Source of the DNA: a virus
Lineage: Duplodnaviria > Caudoviricetes
DNA: 36,665 nt
Reading direction: 5' to 3' (one strand)
IMG/VR virus record: IMGVR_UViG_3300046779_000565
Location: 1 to 36,665 of that record
The notes beneath the pieces are model-generated. The model had not been told where the DNA came from, did not search any database, and saw only the letters and a program-made list of their open reading frames with translations. Below are positions 10,376 through 31,801 of this stretch, in pieces (positions within the stretch are counted from its first letter, which is position 1; each line of letters opens with the position of its first letter). A program made the position numbers and the translations under genes.

Positions 10376-10723
10376 ATGAATTATAGCAATTTAAACTTAC
10401 ATAACATCACTGGTACACTGACTACCAAAACATTAACAGAACGAGATAAATTTTGTGAATACTATAGATGTAGTATCTTACCTACAGACAAAGTAGTAAA
10501 GTACCAAAACATTTTTAATAGTCCTCAGAAAATTTCAAATCCTGTACCATTTGAAACTTACAGTGAAGAAAAATTATTTTATGTTCAGATAACAGAGGGT
10601 ATGTTGCAAGACTTAATTGAACATACCAATAAGATGATTGAAGAATGTGAGATTAGAAGTAAAGATCCAAGATTGATGAAAATGTATAGTGAATACATTA
10701 CCTTTATGAATCTATTGAAATGA
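10376..10723 (+). CDS. Hypothetical protein (115 aa)
   Basis: One of only two credible plus-strand genes. TATAAT at 10365-10370 lies 5 nt before the ATG. C-terminal EE..IR...P.L.KMY..Y pattern. Confidence 0.75.
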   Translation: MNYSNLNLHNITGTLTTKTLTERDKFCEYYRCSILPTDKVVKYQNIFNSPQKISNPVPFETYSEEKLFYVQITEGMLQDLIEHTNKMIEECEIRSKDPRLMKMYSEYITFMNLLK

Positions 10724-10725
10724 TT

Positions 10726-10864
10726 GCCCAGATGCTACCAGTATATAGGAATATCATGCACGAAAAGAGAAGTAGCACCCGGGCGAAAATAGTGTAGAAT
10801 GCGAAACATAAAGGAATAATACTAATGGCATTAAGTAGTTATAAGAATTAGTCGCATCCTACAC
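10726..10864 (-). ncRNA. Putative ~140-nt double-hairpin small RNA with anti-SD/anti-AUG loops
   Basis: Two 13-bp stems (10726-38/10772-84 and 10792-804/10852-64). All three mismatches are G-U on the minus strand. GATAAATA lies 3 nt upstream of the first stem. Confidence 0.65.
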
Positions 10865-10867
10865 AAA

Positions 10868-10875
10868 TATTTATC
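10868..10875 (-). promoter_or_regulatory. T4-late-like motif GATAAATA driving the double-hairpin RNA
   Basis: Just past the stop of the holin-like gene, with no minus-strand gene recognised downstream. Confidence 0.65.
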
Positions 10876-11088
10876 TTACTTTTTGTTGTAAGTTTTTTCT
10901 TCTATCCTTAATATAGCGTTTTCGATACGGCTCATTTGCTTTTCTGATTCTTCTAGTTGCTTGTTTACAACAGCTACCTTTTTATCTATTTCAGTTACCT
11001 TTTCGTTCATAGTCAGGTAACCACCCCCACCAATTCCACAAGCACTGATAACGATCCAAGATAGTTGTTTTGAGGTAAAGTCTATCAT
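10876..11088 (-). CDS. Single-TM plus coiled-coil membrane protein, holin-like (70 aa from ATG 11088)
   Basis: LSWIVISACGIGGGGYL hydrophobic segment then heptad repeats; last gene of the structural operon. Confidence 0.55.
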   Translation of the reverse strand: MIDFTSKQLSWIVISACGIGGGGYLTMNEKVTEIDKKVAVVNKQLEESEKQMSRIENAILRIEEKTYNKK

Positions 11089-19859: not shown

Positions 19860-20420
19860 TTAACCTGTTCTGTTAGGGTATGGTACAGCTACTGGGATTG
19901 GTAATTTACCACCTGGGTAGCAGATGTATTCTGGGTATTCTCTTTGTACCACACGATAGAATTGAGCCTTCAATGTTCTATCTTGTTTGATAGCATTCCA
20001 GGGCATTCCACCAAAATACTGATCCGAAATTCGTATTGATATAACGAATGGTAATTCCATCCATTTATGTTGAAGTTTACCATCTTCACCAATTGGAGCT
20101 AAAGGATCAGGTATGCCAGCTTCTGCTGCTTCTCTGTAAAGTCTACAATGTTCTTTGATAGCATCAGTGTTTTGCTGTTCACGAGTGATGTAGAATTTAC
20201 CATCTTGTCTACCTGTAGTAACTTTGATGTTGTTACCTTTGTTCCAATCAGTTCTTTTCCAATCACCCTTCATATTTCGGTACAAGTTATCATTAGTTAA
20301 TAACTTGTCTGCCAGACCATTGTGATTATCAATCATACCGCCATTATCTTGGCGATAGAAATCATAATTCTTTTCTGGGTCTGAATCGTCTAAGTATTCG
20401 GGTTTATTATAGTCAATCAT
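19860..20420 (-). CDS. Hypothetical protein downstream of the MCP (186 aa), probably leaderless
   Basis: ACTAAATA lies 5 nt before the ATG, with no SD. Confidence 0.8.
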   Translation of the reverse strand: MIDYNKPEYLDDSDPEKNYDFYRQDNGGMIDNHNGLADKLLTNDNLYRNMKGDWKRTDWNKGNNIKVTTGRQDGKFYITREQQNTDAIKEHCRLYREAAEAGIPDPLAPIGEDGKLQHKWMELPFVISIRISDQYFGGMPWNAIKQDRTLKAQFYRVVQREYPEYICYPGGKLPIPVAVPYPNRTG

Positions 20421-30081: not shown

Positions 30082-30230
30082 TTTGTTTTTCCTTTAGTTG
30101 ATTTTTTAGCCGCTTGTCTCTTTGTAGCATACGCAATAGCTACGGCTTGCTTAGGGGGCTTTCCTGCAGCAATTTCTTTTTTAACATTCTTACTGAATGC
30201 TTTTTTACTTGTTGATTTGATTAACGGCAT
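30078..30230 (-). CDS. Small basic protein (50 aa, MPLIKSTSKKAFSKNVKKEIAAGKPPKQAVAIAY...)
   Basis: KQAVAIA motif familiar from small phage proteins near terminase. True start is ATG 30230, 5 nt after GATAAATA. Confidence 0.8.
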   Translation of the reverse strand: MPLIKSTSKKAFSKNVKKEIAAGKPPKQAVAIAYATKRQAAKKSTKGKTK

Positions 30231-31314: not shown

Positions 31315-31370
31315 AGTTAGAAAGACGCAAAATCTGCTGGGTTCTTGATAGCACTTTTGGCGTCTTAACT
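31315..31370. terminator. Imperfect hairpin between convergent genes
   Basis: AAGACGC-AAAA..TGCT / AGCA..TTTT-G-GCGTCTT pairing. Confidence 0.4.
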
Positions 31371-31801
31371 TAATCTAATGTAGCACGAAGCATCCAAATA
31401 TGCTTTGCTAGTGCTAAAATTCTATCTTGTGCATAATTACTAATCTCTTGATGACCTTCTTCTTCACTAATTGCCATTAATTCTTCATAACATCCTTTTA
31501 GATGTTCCAAATCATCTTTAACTTCACTAATTAAGTATTCGCTTGAACCATCTAAAGGTGTTGTTGGCAAATGTGTATCAACAATTACATCTTGTAAACT
31601 GCATGGCATCATTGCTTGTAATGTTCTGAGTAATTCGGCAAGCATATCGATTTGATCTTGCAAATCTTCATAAACTTTTTGTAATAATTTATGGTCACTA
31701 GCAAAGTTTCTACCCATAATGTTTACATGAGCAACATGGCTACGGTAGTATGCTGCAAAGTTGTCATTAAAGACTTGTGTTAATTGTGTTGTTGTATTCA
31801 T
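31370..31801 (-). CDS. dps: Dps / mini-ferritin family protein (143 aa)
   Basis: Y..SH.AHVN..G.NF...H...YE......DMLAE and KHIWMLRA match the Dps signature. Confidence 0.88.
   Translation of the reverse strand: MNTTTQLTQVFNDNFAAYYRSHVAHVNIMGRNFASDHKLLQKVYEDLQDQIDMLAELLRTLQAMMPCSLQDVIVDTHLPTTPLDGSSEYLISEVKDDLEHLKGCYEELMAISEEEGHQEISNYAQDRILALAKHIWMLRATLD

Follow-up and report, generated by a model that had tools for sequence, protein, structure and literature searches.

Genomic context of the element

The window, that is, the whole stretch of DNA that was analysed (36,665 nucleotides), represents a complete circular 36.5-kb podovirus-like genome, whose ends overlap by 127 nt and were classified as direct terminal repeats. 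Its genes encode an SU10-like capsid and portal, a terminase, tail and LamG structural proteins, a primase, a helicase, a glycosyltransferase and a Dps-like protein, the last being a Dps/ferritin-like gene (31370-31801, minus strand) with 27% identity to a Dps-like gene of jumbo phages. Comparison of 36 ORFs with PHROGs and of 38 with Pfam detected no DNA polymerase, sigma factor, integrase or endolysin, with the proviso that ORFs without a match could hide such a function, and the same two resources gave no match in the window to HNH, Nop or recombinase; a tblastn search of the primase against GenBank phages likewise returned none. In IMG/VR, 553 matches to the capsid of the window were found, 80 of which were kept for locus comparison, and most runs holding the stretch carry a freshwater label. 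The Manatee Spring phage possesses a capsid that is 62% identical, but is without the promoter bias and without the RNA described below. A host assignment based on capsid-bearing MAGs was rejected, as it involved only two MAG contigs, from different phyla and probably misbinned.

The element under study is located at the end of a late operon and is composed of the following features, listed with their neighbours:

10876..11088, minus strand: 70-aa gene upstream of the RNA, for a small membrane/coiled-coil protein resembling a holin or spanin; final gene of the late operon; weak Rz-like match
10868..10875, minus strand: late-promoter motif GATAAATA, the same as the jumbo late-type motif; 0-7 nt before the stem in nearly all family members, a spacing across the family that is built into the design of the scan
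10852..10864, minus strand: hairpin 1, 5' arm (closing stem), from the fold and family covariation
10825..10836, minus strand: ACUUAAUGCCAU, the anti-start block of guide 1; complementary to AUGGCAUUAAGU in the tail-sheath gene of jumbo phages
10805..10816, minus strand: UUCCUUUAUGUU, the anti-SD/leader block of guide 1; complementary to AACAUAAAGGAA, which precedes the sheath start
10792..10804, minus strand: hairpin 1, 3' arm, from the fold
10772..10784, minus strand: hairpin 2, 5' arm; hairpin 2 alone has z -4.3, and similar second hairpins occur in relatives L214, L117, L194 and L548
10739..10771, minus strand: guide 2 loop, with anti-SD UAUUCCUAU, anti-AUGCA and anti-AUGAAAAG (via one G-U pair); the late structural genes of 201 aa and 82 aa of the jumbo phages are candidate targets
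10726..10738, minus strand: hairpin 2, 3' arm, from the fold
10376..10723, plus strand: 115-aa convergent ORF without functional assignment; its end is 2 nt away from hairpin 2

The 70-aa holin-like gene is common to jumbo phages, with homologues on jumbo contigs of 45-135 kb and 55% identity to the jumbo gene of L096, while PHROG and Pfam searches of the convergent ORF returned no match.

Architecture and strand of the RNA

Read on the minus strand, GATAAATA (10875-10868) is followed after a 3-nt gap by a 13-bp stem (10864-10852/10804-10792) closing a 47-nt loop (10851-10805) and, after a 7-nt linker, by a second 13-bp stem (10784-10772/10738-10726) with a 33-nt loop (10771-10739), an arrangement that agrees with the one reported in a preliminary description of this DNA. 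The resulting 139-nt element folds on the minus strand with -45.2 kcal/mol (z -6.57), none of 200 shuffles being as stable, and loop 1 is partly closed by a weak inner hairpin with GCC(A) at its tip. These loops had been judged too large for ordinary terminators, in line with their 47 and 33 nt versus 3-8 nt and with the absence of a terminator call at 10726-10864. The window copy has no U-tailed terminator after hairpin 2, and the 3' end of the RNA is therefore undefined in this copy. In Rfam no family came close to its gathering score (best E 0.51), and neither the exact stems in IMG/VR (0 matches) nor BLASTN of the element region against GenBank phages gave a match; a close strain in run X10 that spans the element displays a few changes at the edges of hairpin 2 among the matches listed. 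No RNA run was among the listed runs holding the stretch, and the single RNA run compared with it showed nothing, outcomes that carry no evidential weight.

The minus strand had been proposed on the basis of G-U asymmetry, and this assignment is supported. Each stem contains one G-U pair on the minus strand that is an A-C mismatch on the plus strand, conservation resides on the minus strand, the stretch 10720-10880 has a z of -5.4 on the minus versus -2.9 on the plus strand, and a covariance model built without the window copy finds that copy on the minus strand at 44.2 bits versus 15.9 on the plus strand. When the loops are read on the plus strand, the SD, spacer, ATG and codons previously recognized are recovered with the same letters, namely AACATAAAGGAA-TAATACTA-ATGGCATTAAGT for loop 1 and TAGGAATATC-ATGCACGAAAAGAG for loop 2, and, as stated before, no gene among the window ORFs starts MALSS or MHEKR.

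A reading in which the plus strand is the functional one, as mini-ORFs or a GGA sponge, or in which host mRNAs are targeted, would be accommodated by the moderate folding of the plus strand. Nevertheless, it is considered highly improbable, given that promoter, terminator and G-U pairs all indicate the minus strand, that many relatives have an in-frame stop right behind the plus-strand ATG, and that none of 301 bacterial genomes from a single order was found to contain the two-block pattern of guide 1 (see below), which is a weak control. No support was found for the host mRNAs that the preliminary description had also mentioned as targets.

Conservation of the RNA in related phages

In order to define the RNA family, 160 loci fetched through the adjacent holin-like gene were scanned together with the window at 679 promoter-motif positions, which yielded 54 distinct combinations of promoter, stem and large loop. 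A CAU-N4-14-UCC-type motif is present in 45 of the 54, and the jumbo loci of the scan contain no such combination; a separate scan, of the first 87 loci, gave 13 matches besides the window. A mild motif filter, which inflates the motif census somewhat, left 52 RNAs, and 48 after removal of near-duplicates. YGCCA is present in 43 of these 48 RNAs and at least two UCCY motifs in 42, while GCCAU..UCC and GCAU..UCC, found in 27 and 28 of them, respectively, are both absent (0/48) from the reverse complements. An inner stem engages part of the anti-AUG in many members, and in some of them GCCAU is replaced by GCCAA or GCCUG. An alignment of 24 members, with the window left out, has 98.9% of closing-stem cells paired and 9 of 12 pairs with compensatory changes; one column of this stem alternates between A-U and G-U, and slid controls collapse. 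The covariance model matches 20 of the 46 records from small phages and none of the six from jumbo phages, figures that apply to non-random records and to a model by which divergent members are missed. Relatives with conserved stems and variable loops that keep CAU..UUCCU, as anticipated in the preliminary description, do exist, in the sense that the stems covary and the loops keep CAU..UCCU.

The gene upstream of the RNA is Dps-like in 23 cases, holin-like in 10, HNH in eight and another or none in seven (n=48), and this variation implies that there is no constant partner protein. In most relatives a U-tailed terminator is found behind the RNA, and 30 of the 48 RNAs are followed by a gene of opposite orientation. 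The latter arrangement, together with the location of the window copy at the end of the late operon and a convergent ORF that stops 2 nt from hairpin 2, would befit a cis element, i.e. terminator, processing or stability hairpins facing the convergent gene. However, the RNA has its own promoter motif, the terminator of the relatives is a separate structure behind it, and large loops with anti-SD and anti-AUG motifs on one strand only would be needless for termination, so that a cis function appears very doubtful.

Several additional features were observed in the family. The word TTTTAGTCAT, absent from the window copy, is kept in 26 of 48 RNAs, mostly in the terminator loop (e.g. L022 at ~18240 and L003 at ~3490), and is antisense to ATGACTAAAA, the candidate jumbo starts being those of a 161-aa gene (MTKKL) or of an 88-90 aa gene (MTKKISIKV); identification of the 161-aa gene as a small terminase was dropped, since no search supported it. 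In L194, L218, L159, L140, L162 and L088 the guides are permuted, with the anti-SD block 5' of the GCCA hairpin, and both blocks meet only across the closing stem; the loop of L088 matches the first 12 nt of the 130-aa gene of G001. With respect to capsid genes, L046, L058 and L068/L550 have a sheath-like capsid start with TAAAGGAA and a different promoter-hairpin RNA without the GCCAU..UCCUUU module, and 14 relatives with the GCCA module have a capsid start with AAGGAG. This difference may represent self-avoidance, but AAGGAG or TAGGAG is also present in 4 of 6 readable genomes without a model match. Finally, in L028 and L161 the phage's own 162-aa gene just downstream of the RNA starts like the jumbo gp32 SSB (MASLAEIRAR), and the RNA could bind its start.

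A promoter motif shared with jumbo phages

The motif GATAAATA occurs five times in the window versus 2.7 expected, a number reached by 12 of 100 shuffles, and ATAAATA is found 10 times versus 16.6 expected. As raw counts are not over-represented and sites cluster before starts, the promoter word is significant by position, not by count: 10 of the 16 [AC]TAAATA sites of the window lie at most 70 nt upstream of a start, where ~4% of positions fall. In the capsid loci of 80 relatives the motif favours the coding strand by 424 to 57. The early and primase genes of the window are preceded by a near-perfect sigma-70 promoter.

In the region 10299-10147 (minus strand), this promoter (TTGACA-16-TAAAAT) has a nested CTAAATA and is followed, before the early/primase genes begin, by a second GATAAATA and two stable hairpins (z -4.4). 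L001 has a promoter and hairpin of similar kind at ~721-760, and the element of the window is possibly a second small RNA, a leader switch or an origin. At 28829-28790 (minus strand), GATAAATA precedes a GC-rich hairpin in the leader of a 269-aa gene (z -1.9). The genes at 20420, 23201 and 30757, as well as an internal start at 30230, begin 4-5 nt past the promoter motif, and such genes are likely to give leaderless late mRNAs, out of reach of an anti-SD RNA.

The contigs of 45-135 kb with the holin-like gene come from jumbo myoviruses of ~360 kb, and Atu_ph07, PA5oct and RaK2 have the sheath proteins most similar to theirs. In two complete jumbo genomes, ATAAATA is located upstream of 60 of 443 ORFs (G010) and 60 of 438 (G011), versus 5 and 2 for the reverse complement, and its distance to the AUG peaks at 4-5 nt and 16-24 nt, which is also seen in the window. 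A late sigma factor (phrog_12791, E 1e-70) is encoded at 103227-104078 of G010, and none was detected in four complete small genomes (G000, G009, G017 and G022), the window being among the four. The promoter of the RNA has the same motif and spacing as that of the jumbo phage, and the late sigma was found in the jumbo phage only. The main text of the PA5oct study (PMC7318152) gives TATAATA and TTGAC as promoter motifs and contains no TAAATA, so that NATAAATA is considered a late motif on account of its location ahead of structural genes and of the T4 paradigm. Pieces of the jumbo sheath gene are present in all four runs examined, and co-occurrence alone is therefore cheap evidence.

Loop 1 and the tail-sheath start of jumbo phages

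The preliminary description had predicted complementary start regions in large phages and had guessed at a tail sheath protein starting MAL.SPG. Both ideas were borne out at the sequence level, since sheath starts match loop 1 and the sheath gene, identified as such by PHROG (tail sheath), is its top target. In most jumbo contigs this start reads AACATAAAGGAA-6/7 nt-ATGGCA(T/C)TA. Among seven partial jumbo contigs (114-267 starts each), loop 1 ranks it first in five and second in two, whereas the reverse-complement control of loop 1 places it 5th to 137th; in the complete jumbo genomes it is 2nd of 443 in G010, where a 117-aa late gene whose start looks much the same outranks it, and 4th of 438 in G011. 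The match is not accounted for by its core motifs, because when AGGA+ATGGC or AAAGGAA+ATGGCA was fixed and the rest shuffled, 0/600 and 1/600 sequences reached the real sheath score, and 1/600 and 2/600 did so for any of 104 families. In IMG/VR the two-block pattern, which was cut after the first jumbo matches had been seen, has 43 matches, of which 34 fall on sheath starts, 22 of these being distinct, and nine on the starts of other genes. The notion of guides antisense to initiation regions holds for the SD block and the start-codon block, both of which pair, and not for the spacer, which is mostly unpaired, so that the guide is bipartite.

From 80 loci, six of which have no readable start, 46 distinct sheath starts were obtained, and L312 is the only one among them with a 12+12-nt match (-29.3 kcal/mol). 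Run X1, which contains 99% of the words of the window stretch and may be where that stretch came from, harbours a contig identical to L312 over 317 nt, start included; runs X3, X7 and X10 hold other sheath variants and no piece at least 99% alike to L312. Cofolding with L312, in a nested model that opens the closing stem for binding, yields a gain of -10.4 kcal/mol. The jumbo capsid start (AGGAG..AUGUCA) is without guide blocks.

It could be argued that the RNA tunes late genes of its own phage, for example the capsid gene, which also has an AUGGCA start. The own capsid start reads AAGGAG..AUGGCAG in most relatives, the own capsid gene of L072 and the own gp32-like gene of L028 outscore the jumbo families, and SviR, a small RNA of the Vibrio cholerae island PLE, acts on its own element too, according to bioRxiv 10.1101/2022.04.08.487710. 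In the window, by contrast, the best own start scores 32.5 versus a sheath mean of 43.3, cofold gains for own starts are -1.8 and -1.0 versus -10.4 kcal/mol, and the extended guide blocks are in no own gene, which makes autoregulation a rather remote explanation.

Loop 2 and targets across the family

Complementarity to the ribosome-binding site of a late helper mRNA, present for loop 1, is weaker for loop 2. Instead of a gene starting MHEKR, of which none was seen among the jumbo starts listed, loop 2 fits two other late structural genes. With the 201-aa late gene (ATAGGAATA..ATGAAAAG) it pairs through one G-U, a fit reached by 1/400 shuffles and, for any family, by 10/400, while with the 82-aa late gene it matches at core level only, 92/400 core-preserving shuffles reaching the score; in partial jumbo contigs this gene ranks 4-26. 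The 201-aa gene forms the largest class in the IMG/VR scan with loop 2 (27 among the 120 matches listed of about 150). On the other hand, AUGCA is the part kept in loop 2 of the close relatives L214 and L548, and the 82-aa gene is favoured by the GCAU modules of the family, with a score of 28.9 versus 24.6 for the runner-up, and it exceeds shuffles in 21 of 22 modules. The PA5oct homologues of the sheath, 82-aa and 201-aa genes are annotated as tail sheath, virion structural protein and structural protein, respectively, and no PHROG, Pfam or Atlas name was obtained for the 201-aa and 117-149 aa targets, the predicted structures of which are of low confidence. Loop 2 would probably act in the manner predicted for loop 1 on a second late structural gene; less clearly, this would be the 201-aa or the 82-aa gene, neither being proven.

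When starts are ranked simply by duplex energy, the sheath does not come first in seven jumbo contigs for most of the distant family members. Whole-loop duplex ranking was noisy and favoured G-rich starts, and for this reason shuffle-normalised two-block scores were adopted. When the 48 RNAs were compared with dinucleotide shuffles across 104 jumbo families, the most over-targeted were the 117-149 aa gene, the 82-aa gene, the sheath and the gp32-like SSB; an own gene scores above three jumbo families in 3 of 15 modules. According to an alternative view, the RNA is a generic anti-RBS or decoy molecule that damps strong late starts broadly rather than chosen genes, its repeated single-stranded UCCU and GCCA motifs either imitating the 3' end of 16S RNA or titrating a nuclease or RNA-binding protein. 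The high frequency of both motifs in the family (42/48 and 43/48), the similar starts and similar scores of the sheath, 117-149 aa and SSB genes, and inner stems that often cover the spacer are in agreement with this view. Yet the match between loop 1 and the sheath extends past the SD and AUG cores (0-1/600 shuffles) and 34 of the 43 collection-wide matches fall on one gene; a generic decoy is consequently regarded as unlikely, though somewhat less so than autoregulation, a cis element or a host or plus-strand reading.

Proposed role in phage-versus-phage conflict

The explanation favoured here, with a probability of roughly 70%, is that the RNA is a trans-acting, modular antisense sRNA by which a helper-dependent small phage represses late translation of a jumbo phage. 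This view builds on the structure and strand of the element, its conservation in the family, the shared promoter motif, the complementarity and its specificity, and the exact-match target in X1. The small phage probably depends on a co-infecting jumbo phage. It would enter, or wait in, a shared host and express its early genes from a host promoter, until the jumbo late sigma switches on the small-phage virion operons and the RNA together, so that an RNA of ~140 nt would be transcribed during co-infection. The closing stem would protect and present the loop, seeding would occur at the GCCA tip or at the single-stranded UCCU, and both would pair with AUGGC and the SD, the variable spacer of the target being bridged or looped out; owing to this looped-out spacer, one guide could cover many jumbo strains along with a few look-alike strong starts, those reached being presumably the sheath, the 117-149 aa late gene and the gp32-like SSB. 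Ribosome loading on the sheath mRNA would be blocked, leading to translational repression, fewer jumbo progeny and freed ribosomes, at a cost that is expected to be small for the short-tailed phage, because its own virion needs no sheath.

A broader proposal, for which the odds appear about even, is that small phages with full virion competence, forming an abundant family in freshwater, parasitise the transcription of jumbo phages, running on the jumbo late sigma and using a modular multi-guide RNA, with swappable and even circularly permuted SD+AUG guides, to shut down selected jumbo virion genes. If true, this would constitute an independent and widespread solution beside SviR, with targets readable from sequence; it would point to a class of jumbo-phage parasites and to a protein-free, retargetable anti-phage guide system in phage-versus-phage conflict. 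Guides of this kind would connect uncultured small phages with their helpers, in a way comparable to the connection of phages with hosts by CRISPR spacers, and the bipartite SD+AUG design offers a simple scaffold, open to direct reporter tests.

Comparison with known systems

RNAIII, OxyS and MicF are bacterial trans-acting sRNAs that block ribosome-binding sites and have anti-SD loops. The RNA of the window resembles them in that loop-displayed UCCU/CCU seeds pair with the SD and start codon, and differs from them in being phage-encoded, under a phage late promoter and aimed at another phage. RNA-guided protein systems such as HEARO/OMEGA, TIGR-Tas and bridge RNA have a constant partner gene, which the family does not. 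P4, PICI/SaPI and cf-PICI are satellites that depend on helper transcription and interfere with helper morphogenesis. Predicted dependence on helper transcription and interference with helper morphogenesis are what the small phage would have in common with these elements and with PLE; in contrast to classical satellites, which miss a virion module and use the capsid or tail of the helper, the window has a full virion gene set, and no integrase was found. Its predicted dependence concerns late sigma and DNA polymerase, not virion parts, and the absence of a detectable sigma or polymerase suggests that the small phage is unable to complete its cycle without a helper. As regards the candidate helper, the uncultured freshwater jumbo phages differ from their relatives PA5oct, RaK2 and Atu_ph07, the N-terminal region of the sheath being ~50% identical.

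In the literature searched, which covered few subscription papers, no description was found of this RNA or of such a pair of small and jumbo phages, and SviR was the only satellite anti-helper sRNA encountered. In the main text of a catalogue of candidate viral structured RNAs (PMC10690425), the terms satellite, jumbo, Shine-Dalgarno and sheath do not occur, and its supplements may include the motif with no function given. Elements parasitising jumbo phages are named as an open question by a 2026 review (PMC13282480).

According to the preprint (bioRxiv 10.1101/2022.04.08.487710; PMC13595925 is a further source on SviR and PLE), SviR is a helper-induced, trans-acting sRNA with its own promoter that covers a ribosome-binding site and lowers translation of a late helper gene. 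The likeness lies in the predicted mode of action, that is, an RNA of a parasitic element, with a predicted helper-dependent promoter in the present case, that covers the ribosome-binding site of a late helper gene. The differences, as far as those sources describe SviR, concern both carrier and architecture. SviR is carried by a ~20-kb chromosomal island that borrows helper virion parts, whereas the window is a circular 36-kb genome with its own capsid, portal, terminase and tail genes and is not a PLE island of Vibrio cholerae; the helper here would be a ~360-kb jumbo phage, unlike that of SviR; and SviR is highly conserved, whereas the RNA of the window has a stem-closed loop and bipartite SD+AUG guides that are variable and reshuffled across the family. 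In conclusion, the RNA described here is predicted to work like SviR but is no PLE RNA, its architecture and its carrier being different.
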